A stretch of 64,000 bases of DNA from an uncultured Bacteroidales bacterium. GTDB lineage: Bacteria > Bacteroidota > Bacteroidia > Bacteroidales > CAIXZF01. Shown here in pieces: positions 49,828-61,897 of the stretch. The notes below the pieces were generated by a model, which saw only the letters and a program-made list of their open reading frames with translations, searched no databases and was not told the origin of the DNA. Within the stretch, counting starts at the first letter, position 1, and every line of letters starts with the position of its first letter. The DNA lies in contig CAZSQJ010000011.1 in the NCBI GenBank assembly GCA_964608665.1, positions 2,744 through 66,743 of the forward strand. The letters run 5' to 3'. Position numbers and translations under genes: made by a program.

Positions 49828-50997
49828 ATGAAAAACCGCCGCATGAACTTCCTGGTATTTTTTTCCGTCGTATTGCTGATATACGCTTCGGTGAACTATT
49901 ATATCTGGCTGAGGGCATCCCAGGCCCTGGCCTGCACTCCGGGTGTAACACCCTGGTTCACCGGCCTGTTTCTATTCCTGGCCGCCTCCTATGTGGTGGC
50001 CCGGGTGCTGGAAAGGCTGTATTTCTCTTATCTGAGCGATATCCTCACCTGGATCGGCGCTTTCTGGCTGGCAGCCATGCTTTATTTCTTCCTTACGGTG
50101 CTGCTGCTTGATGTAATCCGCCTGCTGCTGCTGCCGGTACCAGGTTTCAGCCTGAAGAGCCTGTCCGGCTACCCGCAGTTGAAATGCATCCTGCTGCTGA
50201 CGGCCGCCGCACTGACGGCCGTCCTTCTTGTGACGGGTTACCAGCGGGCCGTAAGGACCAGGATTAACCGGCTTGAGATTCGTATCCCGGCACGACAGGC
50301 CGAAAGCGATTCCCTGACCATCGCCATGGCATCAGACATTCACCTGGGAACCCTGATCAATGCCCGCAGGCTCCGGGGGCTGGTGCAACAGCTGAACGGC
50401 CTGCAACCCGACATCATCCTGCTGGCAGGCGACATCGTGGACGAAGATCTTGCCCCCGTGATCCGGAACAACCTGGGAGCCGCACTGCTGGAGCTGAAGA
50501 CCCCGCTCGGGGTCTGGGGAATTACCGGCAACCATGAGTATATCGGGGGTGCGGATGAGGCCGTAACATACCTTGAGGCGCATGGCATCCGCATGCTCAG
50601 GGACAGTGCCGTGAAATTAGCGGGAACGGCCTGGCTCATCGGCAGGGAAGACCGCGACAAAGCGCGTTTCACGGGAAAAAGAAGGAAAAGTCTTGAGGAA
50701 CTGCTCGCTGCCACGGACGACTCCCTGCCGCGCATCCTGCTCGATCACCAGCCTTTCGCACTCGACAAGGCAGCCACAGCCGGCATCGACCTGCAGTTCT
50801 CGGGTCATACCCACCATGGCCAGCTCTGGCCACTGTCAGCGCTTACAAACGCAATCTATGAAGTCAGCCGGGGCTACATGCGCAAACAAAACACCCACTT
50901 CTACGTATCGTCCGGCTTCGGAACCTGGGGGCCACCCGTACGGACGGGATCACGGTCGGAAGTGGTGGTGGTGAAGGTCTTTTTTGAAAAAGAATGA
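49828..50997 (+). CDS. Membrane-anchored metallophosphoesterase (YkuE/YaeI-like)
   Basis: SDIHLG, GDIVD, GNHEY, DHQP, SGHTHHGQ and SSGFGTWGPP. Confidence 0.92.
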   Translation: MKNRRMNFLVFFSVVLLIYASVNYYIWLRASQALACTPGVTPWFTGLFLFLAASYVVARVLERLYFSYLSDILTWIGAFWLAAMLYFFLTVLLLDVIRLLLLPVPGFSLKSLSGYPQLKCILLLTAAALTAVLLVTGYQRAVRTRINRLEIRIPARQAESDSLTIAMASDIHLGTLINARRLRGLVQQLNGLQPDIILLAGDIVDEDLAPVIRNNLGAALLELKTPLGVWGITGNHEYIGGADEAVTYLEAHGIRMLRDSAVKLAGTAWLIGREDRDKARFTGKRRKSLEELLAATDDSLPRILLDHQPFALDKAATAGIDLQFSGHTHHGQLWPLSALTNAIYEVSRGYMRKQNTHFYVSSGFGTWGPPVRTGSRSEVVVVKVFFEKE

Positions 50998-51033
50998 GGT
51001 AAGTATGAAGTATGAGGTATGAGATATGAGATG
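50995..51033 (+). repeat. Heptamer tandem repeat (TGARRTA-like) starting at the stop codon
   Basis: tgaggta agta tgaagta tgaggta tgagata tgagatg. Confidence 0.65.
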
Positions 51034-51094
51034 GGTGGGGAAGAAAGGTCGGGATGGCACTTAAACCGGATCTCAGACAGGACAGTACTCAGGG

Positions 51095-51156
51095 AAAAAA
51101 GTGAGAACCAATCTCAGTATTTCTAAGTACTCAAACCAGCTCTCACTCTGTTTTTT
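51095..51156 (-). terminator. Long G.U-rich hairpin plus U6 on the minus strand; terminator or structured RNA downstream of the PIN gene
   Basis: Arms 51101-51119 and 51128-51146 pair at 18 of 19 positions on the minus strand (5 G.U pairs), followed by tttttt. Confidence 0.55.
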
Positions 51157-51285
51157 GGCTCTTCTAATAGATGATACATGCAACTTACAACCCATGATTG
51201 AGTATGGCATAATGTGGAGGTGTCAGCTAAGAAATTAATGAAGGGTTCACCCATTTTTGATTGGACTGTCGCTAAATGAATATTA

Positions 51286-51786
51286 TCAGAACGATTCACC
51301 GAGCCGCCTATACATATCTACAGTATTCACACTCTCAACGCCCAAAGCATTGCAGGCATCAGGGATCTTAATATCTTTTTTACTTTCCGGCTCGCTCTTT
51401 TCCTGAGTAACAACGATTCGGTTTGCAGAATCCGCTAGCGCATATGCAACAACGAATGCATCAGCTTCATCGACATCAAGAAAAACACTTAGTGCCTTCT
51501 GACGGTAATGTTCACTACGTGACATTGCCCATGCGACAACCTGCCTATAAGAATTCAATATAGATTTTGTGTCCTTGAAGAAGTCCGCAGGTAGGTTTTC
51601 AATACACCATTCTCTTAAGGCATCCTCATTTTTGTAGATTTCATTTTCCACCTTGTCAATACTGACTATGAGGCCTCTTTCAGCCAGTTCCCTGACCTTA
51701 TTCCAGAAACTGGTGGCGACATCAAGAGGGTATGTGACTCTATGAGCTTGGATAAAGAAATTACTATCAACAACATACAATGCCAT
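51286..51786 (-). CDS. DUF4411-family PIN-domain protein (putative RNase)
   Basis: YVVDSNFFIQA, V.NEI, ADAFVVAYA, VVTQE and IKIPDAC, with the PIN acidic residues retained. Confidence 0.85.
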   Translation of the reverse strand: MALYVVDSNFFIQAHRVTYPLDVATSFWNKVRELAERGLIVSIDKVENEIYKNEDALREWCIENLPADFFKDTKSILNSYRQVVAWAMSRSEHYRQKALSVFLDVDEADAFVVAYALADSANRIVVTQEKSEPESKKDIKIPDACNALGVESVNTVDMYRRLGESF

Positions 51787-51792
51787 ATAGGT

Positions 51793-52914
51793 TTAGATAT
51801 GTTGAGTAATAAAGGTATGGAAGGTGTCCCCCCTTAGACTTGTCAGCTTGTAAGCATCCCGTACCAGCAACTGTCCTGCATTTAATGCATTTTTAACGTG
51901 TGCAGCAAAGGTCACACTGATTCTTTTTCTGGCTGTTGCATAGAAATTACCACCATCACCCTGGTTTTCTTTTTTAACGAATTCACGAGTGGAATACTCG
52001 TCATAAAAACGATAAAACTGGGATTGGGATATTTTACCAGTATCCAGTGCTCTGCGTGCGATGACTATTTCACTAACTTTAAATGTTCTGGCAGCATATC
52101 TAATGTCAGCTTGCCGAGACCAGACCTCATTAAAAGCATGTGACGGAACCAGAAATTCGGCCGCCACTTTATCACAGAGTATTTCAACAGGGTCATTTGA
52201 AGGTTGTAGCTTCCTGAAATCAAAGCCCGCACTCCGGCCTACCCAGATATGTGCCAGTTCATGAACGATGGTGAACATTTGTGCTGATTTGAAATCATCG
52301 TTGTTGATGAACATGAACGGCGCCATATTGTCGACCAATACGAAACCCCGGCATTCATCCACCGGAATCTTCCGATGTGGGTTGTTCTCCACTACGCCAT
52401 TAAAGACTGTAATAATCCCAACCTCTTCAATTTGCCTGACTAAATGGTCTAATGCGTCTTGCCATGTATTATGAAAGGAAGCCCAATTCTCCTGCAAACC
52501 GAGCGTGGTTCTGATATCGTCAGCAATAGAAACAACGGGATTCTGATGCCCATAACTCCCGACAAACAATAGAGGTGCGAGCCCCTTGTCCCTCAGGTAT
52601 TCCCTTAGCCAGTCCTGACGCTGTTGTAAAATTAAAATAGTATCATATATGTTCAAACTGACCCTATCAGCCGGTGTATTGTTGGTTCGGAAGAAGGGAA
52701 TGGGTAGGCTCTCAATTGGGGGTTCTTTTAACATCAGGTACCCAAATGGCAGATGTACTTTCCGGGAGAAGGCCTCTAACTGGTTAAACGTTGGTTGCTT
52801 CTCGCCATCCAGCCAATCCTTGACATTAGGGTTATTAGCTGTGAATGTTTCGACATCCAAGCCAGCCCTGGCAATTGCCCATTGAATAATATCCGGTGTA
52901 ACGTCTATCCTCAT
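51793..52914 (-). CDS. XRE-HTH + ImmA/IrrE (DUF955) zinc metallopeptidase
   Basis: N-terminal HTH (WLDGEKQPTFNQLEAFS), FTIVHELAH (HExxH), EILCDKVAAEFLVP and FKVSEIVIARR. Confidence 0.9.
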   Translation of the reverse strand: MRIDVTPDIIQWAIARAGLDVETFTANNPNVKDWLDGEKQPTFNQLEAFSRKVHLPFGYLMLKEPPIESLPIPFFRTNNTPADRVSLNIYDTILILQQRQDWLREYLRDKGLAPLLFVGSYGHQNPVVSIADDIRTTLGLQENWASFHNTWQDALDHLVRQIEEVGIITVFNGVVENNPHRKIPVDECRGFVLVDNMAPFMFINNDDFKSAQMFTIVHELAHIWVGRSAGFDFRKLQPSNDPVEILCDKVAAEFLVPSHAFNEVWSRQADIRYAARTFKVSEIVIARRALDTGKISQSQFYRFYDEYSTREFVKKENQGDGGNFYATARKRISVTFAAHVKNALNAGQLLVRDAYKLTSLRGDTFHTFITQHI

Positions 52915-52918
52915 ACAT

Positions 52919-52926
52919 CAAAGGTA
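52919..52926 (-). promoter_or_regulatory. -7 promoter element (TACCTTTG) only 4 nt upstream of the HTH-IrrE start codon
   Basis: caaaggta at 52919-52926; start codon at 52914. Confidence 0.5.
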
Positions 52927-53088
52927 CGTCATTTATACTCGTGTAATGGTTCTGCAACCAGTGATAGGTTGTTTTCCGGTAAATTGTTATATTTCTCACA
53001 TATGGATACCACCTTTGACCTACCAGAGTTGTAATAAAGAAGTGTCCATATCATTTTCTTGTAGTTAAAATAGAATTTATTAAACCTA

Positions 53089-53427
53089 TCAATCCCAAAG
53101 GCACATTGCCCCACTGTTATCGATTTCCATTTTCCCGGAGCACCTCGGGCATGGGCGTCTCTTTCTGCTCCATTTTACCAGATTATCCGGTGAACTGCAT
53201 ATGGGACAGGTATAAAGGTCATCAGCATCAAATAAAAGCAATTCCTTTGCGATGGGTGTGCCTCTTTGAAAAGTAACGCCATTCTGGCCAACAATAACAT
53301 CTACTATCTCCTCGCAGGCTTTACATATGTATGTGTCCACATCCGCTTTCATCCCAAAGTCATGTCCGGCTGAGGTCAGGACGGAATAACCACAGGAGGG
53401 GCATCTATATGTATACTTGTGTCCCAT
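53089..53427 (-). CDS. Small protein with four CxxC pairs (double zinc ribbon), function unknown
   Basis: CPSC, CKAC, CPIC and CPRC in 112 aa; C-terminal LWD. Confidence 0.75.
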   Translation of the reverse strand: MGHKYTYRCPSCGYSVLTSAGHDFGMKADVDTYICKACEEIVDVIVGQNGVTFQRGTPIAKELLLFDADDLYTCPICSSPDNLVKWSRKRRPCPRCSGKMEIDNSGAMCLWD

Positions 53428-53435
53428 ATACGTTG

Positions 53436-54158
53436 TTACTGTAAGGGGGGTAATGGAGAACCCAAACAATCCATCATCATCATTTTCTGCGCTTTATCAC
53501 CATTCTCTCCTCTGTATTTTCTTTTGTCAAGGTTATATTTCCGGCAGGATGGATGCATCAACACAACGATGTCAGCAACAATTCCATTATTAAAAACCAC
53601 ATTTCTTGATACTTGACTTCCGGTAGCATCCAAAGCCGCATAAGTTTTAATTGTTGACCAAGGACTCAGGCTATTGGCGGTACCGGCAAGAAATCCGGCG
53701 ACACTAAGGCCTAATGCCATGATAAGCTTTGGTTTTTGTATGGTTAGCTGCTCAAGAAAAAAGGTCTGGCAGTCCCGGATGAAAAAGGGGTCATCAAAGC
53801 CCGGACTCTTACCGGTAGATTTGCCATACTTCCTGACACCCATGACTGCGTTTGTAAAGAAACAGTGATTCAATTCAATATGTAGCTGGTTTAGAAAGCT
53901 TTCCAGATTACGCCAGGTTCGGGAATTGTCATTTGCGGTGCCTCCCTGTCTTAAATCTTCCTTATACCAATCCAAAGTTCCCCAGTCGTGGCCGAGTACC
54001 ATATAGTCTTTATTTGATATGGTATCGCTGCCATCGACAATACCCTTACCTCCCGGGAAGAATGAACGCCCTTTGATTTCAGCCCGGACTTTAACCATAG
54101 TTTCAGGGTAGGTTTTGATATCATCCAGTTTGTACAACAAAATGCTGAGATCTGTCAT
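53436..54158 (-). CDS. Divergent uracil-DNA-glycosylase-superfamily protein
   Basis: Motif A position MVLGHDWG, CFFTNAV, EQLTIQKPKLIMALG and motif B LMHPS. Confidence 0.75.
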   Translation of the reverse strand: MTDLSILLYKLDDIKTYPETMVKVRAEIKGRSFFPGGKGIVDGSDTISNKDYMVLGHDWGTLDWYKEDLRQGGTANDNSRTWRNLESFLNQLHIELNHCFFTNAVMGVRKYGKSTGKSPGFDDPFFIRDCQTFFLEQLTIQKPKLIMALGLSVAGFLAGTANSLSPWSTIKTYAALDATGSQVSRNVVFNNGIVADIVVLMHPSCRKYNLDKRKYRGENGDKAQKMMMMDCLGSPLPPLQ

Positions 54159-54351
54159 TGGAATGAAGTAAAATAGTGAGTACTCATACGACCACCCGGT
54201 TAACTTACCGAACAATCAGGAAGAACCGGCAAAACACATCAAAGTTAAGAAGATTATTGGGATGGACAAGCAATGCAGACTTCAGTTTCATCATGGTCTA
54301 TTTATCTGGGTCATCCATAAAATTGCTTCACTTTATCGTTAAAATTCAGGT

Positions 54352-54359
54352 TACATTTG
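54352..54359 (+). promoter_or_regulatory. -7 promoter element (TACATTTG)
   Basis: TAnnTTTG upstream of the LEA-2 lipoprotein gene. Confidence 0.45.
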
Positions 54360-54416: not shown

Positions 54417-54998
54417 ATGAAAGTTCTTACAGCATTCTTTTTCGCTGCGGCATTCCTGCTGGTCCCGTCCTGCGATGTGGTTAAACAGGCACAGCAGATG
54501 GGGAGCCTGATCAATTGTGATTTTTCCCTGAAAAGTGTGGAAAACATCACCCTCGCCGGGGTCAGTGTTCAGCAGGTACAATCCTTGTCCTCACTCAATG
54601 TGCTTGATGTGGGAAAACTGACCGCGGCTCTGGCCGGAGGGGCACTGCCGCTGTCTTTCACACTGAACGTGCAGGCCAGGAATCCCAATAAATCTGCTGC
54701 CGGTATGAACCGCATGGAGTGGATACTGCTGATCGATGACATCGAAATGACGAAAGGAATCCTGAACCGTAAGATCAACATCCCGGCCAATAACGGGACT
54801 TCTGTCATTCCGCTTCAGATGAACTTCGACCTGAAAAAGGTACTGTCGAACCGCAGCGGCGACGCCCTGCTGAATTTCGCGCTCGGACTGGCAGGTGCCG
54901 GCAACACACCCAGCCGGATCACACTGAAAGCCAAACCCACCATCAGTGTTTCAGGATACAGCCTCGATTATCCGGGCTATATCACCATCACGCCCTAA
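54417..54998 (+). CDS. LEA type 2 / WHy-like lipoprotein
   Basis: Lipobox VPSC, NVQARNPN, MNRMEWILLIDD and IPLQMNFDL. Confidence 0.75.
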   Translation: MKVLTAFFFAAAFLLVPSCDVVKQAQQMGSLINCDFSLKSVENITLAGVSVQQVQSLSSLNVLDVGKLTAALAGGALPLSFTLNVQARNPNKSAAGMNRMEWILLIDDIEMTKGILNRKINIPANNGTSVIPLQMNFDLKKVLSNRSGDALLNFALGLAGAGNTPSRITLKAKPTISVSGYSLDYPGYITITP

Positions 54999-60728: not shown

Positions 60729-61897
60729 GCAATCCACAGATAGAAATACAGCTCATCGCCGTGGTGGTTGCTGCAGCATGCGCCATACCGGGGGTGTTCC
60801 TCGTGCTCCGGAAAACGGCCATGATCAGCGATGCCATCAGCCATGCCATCCTCCCGGGTATCGTCGCCGGCTTCTTCCTGACCAGGGATCTCAGTTCTCC
60901 CTGGCTGGTGCTGATGGCCACCCTGACCGGAATGCTGACGGTGGTGCTTGTGGAAGTGACACATAAAACCGGACTGGTAAAGGAAGATGCCGCCATCGGC
61001 CTGGTTTTTCCGGCCCTGTTCAGTATCGGGGTCATCCTCATCGCCCGTTTTGCGGGTAGTATCCACCTCGATACGGATGTGGTACTCTCCGGGGAGATCG
61101 CTTTTGCCCCATTCGACAGGCTGTATGCCGGAAACACGGATCTGGGGCCAAAATCAATCTGGGTGATGGGAGGGATCCTGCTGATCAGTCTGACATTGCT
61201 GATTGTTTTCTATAAAGAACTGAAGATTAGCACCTTTGATCCAGAACTGGCGGCAACCCTCGGCTTTACACCCGTGCTGCTGCATTACAGCCTGATGCTG
61301 CTCACCTCTGTGACCACTGTAGGAGCATTCGATGCCGTGGGAGCCATCCTGGTGGTGGCCCTGATGATCGTTCCCGCAGGAATTGCCTACCTGCTCACCA
61401 GCAAGCTGAAGACGATGCTTTGGCTTGCCGTGGGTTCAGGCACCTTATCTGCCATTGCGGGGTACTGGCTGGCCCGCCGGCTCGATGGCAGCATCCCGGG
61501 CTCCATGGCCGTGGTACTCGGCCTGTTTTTCCTGCTCACCTATCTGTTCTCATCCCGCCATGGCGTGATCCCCGGTATTTTCAGGCTGAAGAGGCAGAAA
61601 AAGGAATACGCCCTGCTCACCTTCCTGCTCCATATCAAAAATCACAGCGGACCCGGACAGGATCCCGCCGAAAGGGATGTGTCACATCTGAACAGACATT
61701 TCAACTGGAGCGAAAAGACCGCCCGGATGGTGTTGAACCTGGCCGGGAAAAACAACCTGATCCAGATGCAGGATCAGTTCGTTTCCCTTACACCCAAGGG
61801 AGAAACATTCACGGAAGAAGCAGTCGGTGTCATCATCCATAACGAAAAAGCCGCACTGGAAAATATCAAGGGAAGGTTTCTGCTGTTCAGGGGGTAA
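60725..61897 (+). CDS. Metal ABC permease (TroD/MntD-like) with a C-terminal winged-helix-like tail
   Basis: MISDAISHAILPG, TFDPELA, VGAILVV; tail HFNWSEKTARMVL.....NLI......SLTPKG. Confidence 0.9.
   Translation: MSNPQIEIQLIAVVVAAACAIPGVFLVLRKTAMISDAISHAILPGIVAGFFLTRDLSSPWLVLMATLTGMLTVVLVEVTHKTGLVKEDAAIGLVFPALFSIGVILIARFAGSIHLDTDVVLSGEIAFAPFDRLYAGNTDLGPKSIWVMGGILLISLTLLIVFYKELKISTFDPELAATLGFTPVLLHYSLMLLTSVTTVGAFDAVGAILVVALMIVPAGIAYLLTSKLKTMLWLAVGSGTLSAIAGYWLARRLDGSIPGSMAVVLGLFFLLTYLFSSRHGVIPGIFRLKRQKKEYALLTFLLHIKNHSGPGQDPAERDVSHLNRHFNWSEKTARMVLNLAGKNNLIQMQDQFVSLTPKGETFTEEAVGVIIHNEKAALENIKGRFLLFRG

Follow-up and report, generated by a model that had tools for sequence, protein, structure and literature searches.

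Family 1 uracil glycosylases (UNG) carry the motif A sequence GQDPY and the motif B sequence HPSPLS, and the Tyr of GQDPY excludes thymine and 5-substituted bases. Families 2 and 3 (MUG/TDG and SMUG1) have a motif A of the form G-[IM]-N-P-G, with a catalytic Asn; in SMUG1 (GMNPG), the small fifth motif A residue lets the enzyme accept 5-hydroxymethyluracil. In family 4 enzymes (UDGa), motif A is GE[A/G]PG and a 4Fe-4S cluster is held by four Cys residues; UdgX contains a KRRIH loop in which His109 cross-links to the abasic site.

Base-excision defence is a recent concept, reportedly dating from 2024 for Brig1 and from 2025–26 for the Dag proteins, Brig2 and Brig3, with each new glycosylase reportedly revealing which phage DNA modification was being read. 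The active site reported for Brig3 consists of N50-P51-S52 and H125/D127, with N225 as a wedge; by its authors' account the solved fold is AAG-like, yet they also place it in the UDG superfamily. Brig1 and Brig2 are UDG-fold glycosylases that each act as a single-gene defence (PMC11078745; bioRxiv 10.1101/2025.10.29.685425). Brig1 excises alpha-glucosyl-hmC and protects against T-even phages, and 42 homologs were found by its authors using PSI-BLAST (PMC11078745). Brig2 provides defence against phages containing 5-(2-aminoethyl)uridine or 5-acetylaminomethyl-dU; it has more than 500 homologs, which occur in Proteobacteria, Firmicutes and Bacteroidetes, in AT-rich regions and regions associated with mobile genetic elements (bioRxiv 10.1101/2025.10.29.685425).

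The gene of interest here lies in a 64-kb stretch of Bacteroidales DNA (hereafter, the window), and was singled out by an original prediction as coding for a UDG-superfamily protein with an unusual motif A, GHDWG. In this work, we compare the gene, its predicted product and its homologs with the families above.

Results

The glycosylase-like gene is cargo of an islet at a variable hotspot

The gene is a 240-aa ORF that begins with ATG and whose coordinates include the stop codon (Table 1). The ORF and all of its quoted landmarks—GHDWG at residues 56–60, FFTNAV at 100–105, QKPKLIMALG at 141–150 and MHPS at 201–204—are present as originally reported. The database call for the same gene is shorter, at 220 aa, and begins at M21. 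We prefer the 240-aa start, because homologs align with the longer ORF right from its first residue and L7 is nearly invariant. Metatranscriptome contigs, which may contain DNA, cover the 3' end of the gene. Upstream, a full Bacteroidetes-type bipartite promoter was not found, and sigma-70-like sites are no commoner than in shuffled sequence.

The four genes of the islet occupy 3.4 kb with a GC content of 41–45%, versus 47–59% in the flanks. From position 61896 down to exactly 54352, the window is colinear with a related metagenome contig (L055/L056; 85% nucleotide identity, and 87% identity for the adjoining M16 peptidase). At the same site, this relative contains a different islet of 3.5 kb, with a GC content of 31–38%, coding for an MNT-type nucleotidyltransferase (PADLOC candidate PDC-S09), a YcxB-like protein and a T9SS-sorted beta-propeller protein. 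The synteny break, together with the other islet in the relative, identifies the site as a hotspot of variable content in a Bacteroidota chromosome, with the glycosylase-like gene as part of its cargo. The same DNA is found in sludge, digester and soil metagenomes. No tRNA genes occur in the window. Two inverted repeat pairs were considered as boundaries of the islet and rejected: they share the same offset, have the wrong geometry for terminal inverted repeats, and are probably due to chance.

Immediately downstream, the zinc-ribbon gene starts 11 nt past the glycosylase stop codon, and the two genes are probably co-transcribed. A metatranscriptome contig (99% identical, and of the kind that may contain DNA) spans positions 53416–53606, bridging the 3' end of the former gene and the start of the latter, in weak support of this. 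As a partner at the level of the whole family, the zinc-ribbon protein was rejected; a UDG-like gene is clearly missing upstream of one of its four homologs, and no zinc-ribbon-type neighbour was found at the other 43 loci compared. A gap of 174 nt separates the zinc-ribbon gene from that of the M78 peptidase, whose product matches phrog_2439 ("transcriptional regulator") over its full length (2e-47) and also gives an RmrA/CapP-like match in PADLOC (1e-12). The DUF4411 gene follows a further 6 nt on. The M78 and DUF4411 genes are likely to form a two-gene module, either toxin-antitoxin or (defence-)regulator-like.

Table 1. Positions of the islet, its genes and the motif codons of the glycosylase-like gene in the window.
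Feature	Position	Strand	Basis
Low-GC accessory islet, four genes, all on - strand	51001..54351	.	GC dip; synteny end at 54352
DUF4411 protein, 166 aa	51286..51786	-	Pfam DUF4411 8e-46; phrog_11126
ImmA/IrrE-type M78 peptidase with N-terminal regulator-like region, 373 aa	51793..52914	-	Pfam Peptidase_M78 7e-14
Double zinc-ribbon protein, 111 aa	53089..53424	-	Weak Zn-ribbon matches only
UDG-superfamily glycosylase-like gene	53436..54158	-	ORF; Pfam UDG; AlphaFold2 model; Foldseek; 1,333 homolog clusters
Motif B HPS codons (residues 202-204); H202 = candidate leaving-group stabiliser	53547..53555	-	H202 in 156/159; after strand 194-200
CFFTN codons (residues 99-103); N103 = candidate base-reading Asn ("motif 3")	53850..53864	-	N103 in 156/159; aligned with UdgX YVTNAV
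Motif A GHDWG codons (residues 56-60); D58 = candidate water-activating residue	53979..53993	-	Reverse complement GGC CAC GAC TGG GGA; after strand 52-56
FFPGGKG codons (residues 33-39), ahead of strand beta-1	54042..54062	-	Near-invariant columns; low-probability hhalign match to "IYPP" of E. coli Ung

The protein is predicted to adopt a UDG fold

The 240-aa protein matches the Pfam UDG model PF03167 at 29.4 bits (gathering cut-off 24.3; E = 1e-6). An AlphaFold2 model built on 14 homologs has a mean pLDDT of 91.8 and a pTM of 0.90. In the model, GHDWG and HPS each directly follow a beta strand (residues 52–56 and 194–200, respectively), and this is the standard placing of UDG motifs A and B. 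The superfamily is recognized by a significant profile match and by an alpha/beta fold in which motif A comes after strand beta-1 and motif B, with its His, after a late strand; the protein has both.

When the model was compared with the PDB using Foldseek, 41 matches were obtained at E ≤ 1e-3, and for many UDG structures the probability was 1.00. The 50 best matches listed all carry UDG-fold domains (UdgX, family 4, SMUG1, TDG, one UNG and one phage polymerase), and no AAG entry is among these 50. UdgX and family 4 structures come first (E = 5e-7 to 6e-5), followed by SMUG1, TDG and a UNG, with TM-scores of about 0.5; the matches to families 2 and 3 (MUG/TDG and SMUG1) are weaker, at E = 1e-4 to 3e-3. 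A search of BFVD gave only distant phage UDG-fold proteins. At the sequence level, a direct search of the PDB with the 240-aa protein gave no match. A profile search of the same database reached family 4 and UdgX at E values of about 0.04–1.5, aligning CFFTN with YVTNAV of UdgX, and C130 with a Cys of the T. maritima family 4 UDG.

The resemblance to UDGs, which is seen in Pfam, the AlphaFold2 model, Foldseek and the homolog clusters described below, is not due to chance. The 240-aa protein is very likely a UDG-fold glycosylase, and the fold that had been proposed for it from sequence is the one that structure prediction returns.

A rare and patchy family with a conserved motif set

An exhaustive profile search found 1,333 homologous clusters (defined at 50% identity) at E ≤ 1e-3, of which 895 fall at E ≤ 1e-10 and 382 at E ≤ 1e-30; a word-indexed search found only 13 relatives. 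The members have a median length of 244 aa, and are mostly metagenome sequences from Bacteroidota, Acidobacteriota and Planctomycetota. The family is rare and patchy: a pattern-limited scan of 185,579 species genomes gave 39 loci, and the clusters mostly consist of 1–5 contigs.

Column counts were made for the window protein plus 158 proteins from the word-indexed and profile searches (n = 159). Motif A begins with Gly in 152 sequences; its second position is Q in 95, H in 50 and N in eight, its third D in 134 and N in 22, its fourth F in 121, Q in 14 and W in 13, and its fifth D in 79, G in 42 and H in 19. Pro was not seen at the fourth position in any of the 159 sequences. The commonest form of the motif is GQDFD (41 of 159), and GHDWG is found in four. 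Motif 3 (CFFTN) has N103 in 156 sequences and F100 in 152. Motif B takes the form HPS-x-R-x-x-N (H202 in 156, P203 in 153 and R206 in 118 of 159), and in the window protein reads HPSCRKYN. A further, family-specific motif, FFPGGxG, lies near the N-terminus; among the 149 representatives with this region, F33, P35 and G39 are each found in all 149, and F34 in 146.

The GHDWG motif had been described as non-canonical. It is indeed a minority variant, yet it does not represent a wholly new type, given that the family consensus, GQDFD plus HPS, is family 1-like. The G-Q-D and H-P-S residues are those of GQDPY and HPSPLS, and His at the second position is a common variant within the family (31%); GHDWG is therefore best called family 1-like. 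The identity of this second residue is correlated with that of the third. Asn in place of the catalytic Asp is found solely after His or Asn (H-N, 20 sequences; N-N, two; Q-N, zero; n = 159). Fisher's test of Asn/Asp against the Q and H rows, which ignores kinship, gives p = 3e-11, although the H-N sequences do not resemble one another more closely than the others do. The co-occurrence of Asn and His suggests involvement of the motif A His in catalysis.

The prediction that the protein lacks an Fe-S cysteine set holds across the family. The window protein contains four Cys residues, of which only C99 (147 of 159) and C130 (144 of 159) are conserved; with two conserved Cys residues only, a 4Fe-4S cluster is unlikely. 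Searches with the extra domains of ten fused members (Pfam), with nine members including five of these fusions (NCBIfam) and with one fused domain (PDB sequences) gave a weak hint of YraN (E = 0.085) as their sole result.

Comparison with families 1–4, UdgX, Brig1 and Brig3

The closest described proteins by structure and by profile are family 4 UDGs and UdgX. The window protein shares with these its topology, the TN "motif 3", a motif B of the HP type and the helix C..F...Q....P..I..LG, which includes one former Fe-S ligand position (C130). Unlike them, the window family has no four-Cys cluster, no GE[A/G]PG motif and no UdgX cross-linking His, and it is extended at the N-terminus by some 50 residues that include the invariant FFPGGxG. 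In a profile alignment, the position of UdgX His109 falls on residue 121, which within the family is F (51), A (37) or L (13). The curated NCBIfam models point the same way. The family 4, UdgX and archaeal type-4 models score the window protein and eight other members at 12–28 bits, against cut-offs of 125–250: for the window protein, 18.6 bits versus 125.3 for the family 4 model TIGR00758 (12.7–27.7 bits for the other members), and 18.1 bits versus 189.95 for the UdgX model TIGR03914. No other curated glycosylase family in NCBIfam, the UNG model included, was matched.

Family 1 (E. coli Ung, human UNG2) is the nearest by motifs. Besides the motif A and B residues above, the TNAV of the window protein resembles the LNAV of UNG. 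The two differ in that the Pro-Tyr of GQDPY is replaced by F or W plus D, G or H in the window family, and in that UNG structures rank below those of family 4 and SMUG1 in Foldseek. An hhalign comparison with E. coli Ung gave no significant overall similarity (probability 2.4%) and a single local match, placing IMVLGQDFD on VVILGQDPY and FFPGG on IYPP; the motifs GHDWG and HPSCRKYN are not those of family 1. Families 2 and 3 are set apart by the motif A of the window family, G-[Q/H]-[D/N]-[F/W]-x. SMUG1 is structurally similar (E = 1e-4), and the motif A of the window protein likewise ends in Gly, but SMUG1 has a catalytic Asn rather than Asp, its motif B and N-terminal parts are different, and there is no match between the two at the level of sequence.

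The Brig1 sequence, taken from the supplement of PMC11078745, matches the window family profile with an hhalign probability of 0.5% (E = 0.11 over 40 columns), and the window protein is thus not a Brig1 family member by sequence homology. In general character the two are alike: each is a UDG-fold protein of about 250 aa that stands as a single gene, lacks an Fe-S cluster and is carried as accessory cargo, and the best structural relatives of Brig1 are also family 4 UDGs. However, the motif A of Brig1 is GLNPG, Brig1 has no Pfam UDG match, and its key residues, Y121 and E147, lie in an "NFE" context, in contrast to the TNAV of the window protein. The residues reported for Brig3 have no counterpart pattern in the window protein, a distinction drawn from the published description of Brig3.

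The family is, with good confidence, a clade distinct from families 1–6, UdgX and Brig1. Its scaffold is closest to the family 4/UdgX branch, with the Fe-S cluster probably lost, and its motifs have either converged on, or retained, a family 1-like set. The original view of the protein as part of an uncharacterised UDG-superfamily clade is supported by the low NCBIfam and Brig1 scores, and by the lack of any match to the 240-aa protein in PADLOC or PHROG.

Family members occur in diverse genomic contexts

In an all-against-all BLAST of the neighbours at 44 loci, no conserved partner gene was found beyond core genes that are shared by related genomes. Within two genes on either side of the family member at 38 loci, no Pfam family occurs at more than two loci, and most neighbours are ordinary metabolic or housekeeping genes. 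Type I restriction-modification methylases are present at two of the 38; at one locus, type I restriction-modification genes and a Schlafen/AlbA_2 protein adjoin the family member.

Several members interrupt adjacent core genes. Three, on Planctomycetota-like contigs, are flanked by gyrB and gyrA in the same orientation, at distances of 4–116 nt, and two of these are accompanied by a DUF433 gene together with an unknown or HNH-HEAT gene. In three Saprospirales genomes, the member lies between the genes for the transketolase subunits (tktN/tktC), once along with three small unknown genes. Elsewhere, a truncated copy is found beside two transposases (insertion sequences), near a DUF4145 protein. 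In the replication/packaging block of one IMG/VR phage-like contig, the genes on either side of a member code for an HNH endonuclease and a ParB-methyltransferase. Viral contigs with a member are few (2 of 2.9 million, in a scan that used a narrow family alignment), and no homologs were found in 50,697 phage and 72,556 plasmid records.

The contexts of the family fit a self-contained, horizontally moving one-gene unit; on their own, they do not separate a defence function from optional repair.

Discussion

By analogy with D64 and H187 of E. coli Ung, and N89 and H155 of T. thermophilus UDGa (PMC5387724), the conserved active-site residues indicate that the protein is probably catalytically active. 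We envisage a catalytically competent, single-domain, monofunctional DNA glycosylase belonging to a rare, sporadic and uncharacterised UDG clade, which would work as follows. A pyrimidine would be flipped from the DNA into a pocket stacked by F100 and F101, where N103 would recognise a uracil-type base by its O4/N3 edge. D58 of GHDWG, helped by H57, would activate the attacking water, and H202 of HPS would stabilise the departing base, with R206 or a neighbouring loop filling the gap. An abasic site would result, and a lyase step is not expected. The position of the family 1 Tyr is occupied by Gly in the window protein and by Asp in most family members. As the TNAV sequence is like that of uracil-specific enzymes and the Tyr position is small or acidic, the likeliest substrate, judged from motif position, would be uracil or a 5-substituted uracil or thymine derivative. 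It may be speculated, from the register of the motifs, that an Asp at the Tyr position could pair with the amino groups found on many phage thymidine hypermodifications.

Our preferred explanation, to which we assign a probability of roughly 0.4, is that the gene codes for an active glycosylase on a family 4-like scaffold, carried as cargo of the horizontally acquired islet and acting as a single-gene anti-phage defence. Like Brig1 and Brig2, the protein would act on invading DNA, excising a non-canonical base. The defence role itself is put forward tentatively. Family members do occur in defence-like or mobile contexts: the toxin-antitoxin-like pair at the hotspot in the window and, elsewhere, type I restriction-modification genes, insertion sequences, HNH and DUF433 genes and the phage-like contig. 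Against defence are the scarcity of restriction-modification methylases (2 of 38 loci), the mostly metabolic neighbours and the absence of a PADLOC match and of homologs in the phage and plasmid records, and the gyrB-gyrA and transketolase placements could equally mean stable housekeeping use. It is quite conceivable, if somewhat doubtful, that the protein is instead a back-up or specialised repair glycosylase, acting on uracil or on deaminated or oxidised pyrimidines in host base-excision repair from a poorly conserved genomic position. True uracil glycosylases have the same catalytic set (G-Q/H-D, TN and HPS), three members sit closely between gyrB and gyrA, most neighbours at the 38 loci are housekeeping or metabolic, and repair-type enzymes make up other sporadic UDG families, among them UdgX and DR0022-like (PMC10776899, PMC9796141). 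Yet the family is very patchy and, for a repair gene, rare; the window gene lies in a low-GC islet that is absent from a close relative; one member is found in a phage-like contig; and in several genomes the member interrupts adjacent core genes in the company of toxin-antitoxin-like, HNH or small unknown genes. The original prediction took the accessory location of the gene as an argument against housekeeping repair. The location is accessory in the window, by both GC content and synteny, but the argument does not extend to the family as a whole, with its gyrB-gyrA members and metabolic neighbours.

The remaining explanations place the protein closer to known defence systems or to mobile elements. 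Distant membership of the Brig2 family, which would make the protein a new member of a known defence family, is improbable. Brig2 is itself a single-gene UDG-fold defence protein with a patchy distribution and over 500 homologs, the phyla of these overlap with those of the window family, and its uracil/thymine-type target is the substrate class suggested by the window motifs. However, judged from the sizes of the homolog regions listed in Table S7 of the Brig2 preprint, the Brig2-homolog genes code for about 155–211 aa, and appear 30–50 aa shorter than the window family, with its median of 244 aa and invariant N-terminal FFPGG. They also come largely from Pseudomonadota, including the heavily sequenced Vibrio and Pseudomonas, rather than from Bacteroidota, Acidobacteriota and Planctomycetota metagenomes, and no contig name in Table S7 recurs among the 39 genome loci; gene length and taxa are thus indirect signs that the two would form different clusters. 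A role in serving a mobile element, by conditioning DNA for the element's own replication or exclusion, or as a UdgX-like lesion binder or cross-linker rather than a turnover enzyme, seems very improbable. This would agree with the member in the replication/packaging block of the phage-like contig, with the frequent presence of UDG-fold proteins in phage genomes (seen in the BFVD search), and with UdgX as the top structural match. Such a role is at odds with the near absence of members from viral contigs and phage records, with the F, A or L at the His109 position and the low UdgX model score, and with the conservation of the catalytic Asp and His. A more specific form of the defence explanation, which we consider rather unlikely, is that the roughly 1,300 clusters make up a distinct, unnamed UDG family, with a family 4-like scaffold free of the Fe-S cluster, a G[Q/H]D/HPS active site and a unique FFPGGxG element, of stand-alone anti-phage glycosylases directed against a hypermodified thymidine or uracil-type base, independent of Brig1, Brig2 and Brig3, and spreading as a one-gene cassette into hotspots, even into co-transcribed core pairs like gyrB/gyrA.

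The finding is a good, cheap experimental candidate, and not a surprise in kind. A clade with an intact family 1-type catalytic set and an altered "thymine gate" can be tested at low cost; it might read a further modified pyrimidine, and might provide a tool enzyme with which to map that base. Should the protein prove to act simply in uracil repair, the UDG superfamily would nonetheless gain one more family, and a GQD/HPS active site on a family 4-like scaffold would bear on the evolution of catalytic motifs.

Gene content and edges of the islet

The low-GC islet is common to the UDG-superfamily glycosylase gene and a neighboring two-gene unit, in which 6 nt separate an M78 peptidase-regulator gene from the DUF4411 gene downstream of it. 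The two constitute a toxin-antitoxin-like or defence-regulator-like pair. The zinc-ribbon gene starts 11 nt past the stop codon of the glycosylase gene, and its product is rare: only four homologs were found among 5.8 billion proteins. One of these (locus L051) is encoded ahead of an HTH_3 gene, with no UDG-like gene upstream of it in that locus.

On its left edge, the islet carries a run of TATGAGR heptamers, which immediately follows the Metallophos stop codon. All 32 nt of this run recur, with differing flanks, on other contigs in two metagenomes. Two pairs of 18 nt inverted repeats, showing an identical offset, lie either side of the islet. Their geometry does not fit terminal inverted repeats, and for this reason both pairs have probably arisen by chance. 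At the same hotspot, the related metagenome contig L055 carries an alternative low-GC islet, which encodes (i) an MNT-type nucleotidyltransferase (PADLOC PDC-S09), (ii) a YcxB-like protein, and (iii) a T9SS-sorted beta-propeller protein.

Features of the islet and loci of glycosylase family members
Feature	Sequence	Positions	Strand	Details
TATGAGR heptamer run	Window	51001-51032		
M78 peptidase-regulator, then DUF4411 protein	Window	51286-52914	-	ImmA/IrrE-type, 373 aa, with PADLOC RmrA/CapP-like and phrog_2439 matches (M78); 166 aa (DUF4411)
Double zinc-ribbon protein	Window	53089-53424	-	111 aa; two CxxC...CxxC pairs
Inverted repeats, pair 1	Window	50986-51003 / 54426-54443		18 nt
Inverted repeats, pair 2	Window	51082-51099 / 54521-54538		18 nt
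Alternative islet	L055	13500-17000		GC 0.31-0.38; hotspot site at window 54352 leftwards
Family member	L052	7974-8684		31% identity; phage-like IMG/VR contig
Family members between gyrB and gyrA	L045	7729-14662		Same strand
	L046	7849-13339		Same strand
	L050	6400-14066		Same strand
Family members 3' of transketolase N-terminal subunit gene	L002	6279-9712		Saprospirales
	L003	7070-8651		Saprospirales
	L039			Saprospirales

Genomic settings and sequence features of the family

Elsewhere, glycosylase family members occur between core genes. The member between gyrB and gyrA is separated from its neighbors by 35 and 4 nt in L046; in L045 and L050 it is accompanied by a DUF433 gene and either an HNH-HEAT or an unknown gene, and the gyrB of L050 contains an intein. 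Three Saprospirales genomes share the transketolase location, and in L002 the insert, which includes three small unknown ORFs, sits right between the gene for the N-terminal subunit and that for the C-terminal one. The member in phage-like contig L052 is flanked by an HNH endonuclease and a phrog_2308/ParB-methyltransferase block, on a contig that additionally encodes a primase-helicase and an SNF2-type helicase.

Several high-GC members (P0095, P0119, P0131, P0138) share a small, beta-rich N-terminal extension that terminates in "...R-x-ADHP" immediately ahead of the glycosylase domain, and for which no Pfam match was obtained.

Finally, the family alignment (159 representatives, including the window protein) reveals covariation within motif A, at window-protein residues 57-58 (window 53985-53990). 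Asn is observed at the catalytic position 20 times after His and twice after Asn, while none of the 95 cases with a preceding Gln displays it. Since a catalytic-position Asn is seen only after His or Asn, and never after Gln, the alignment suggests that the motif A His plays a catalytic role.
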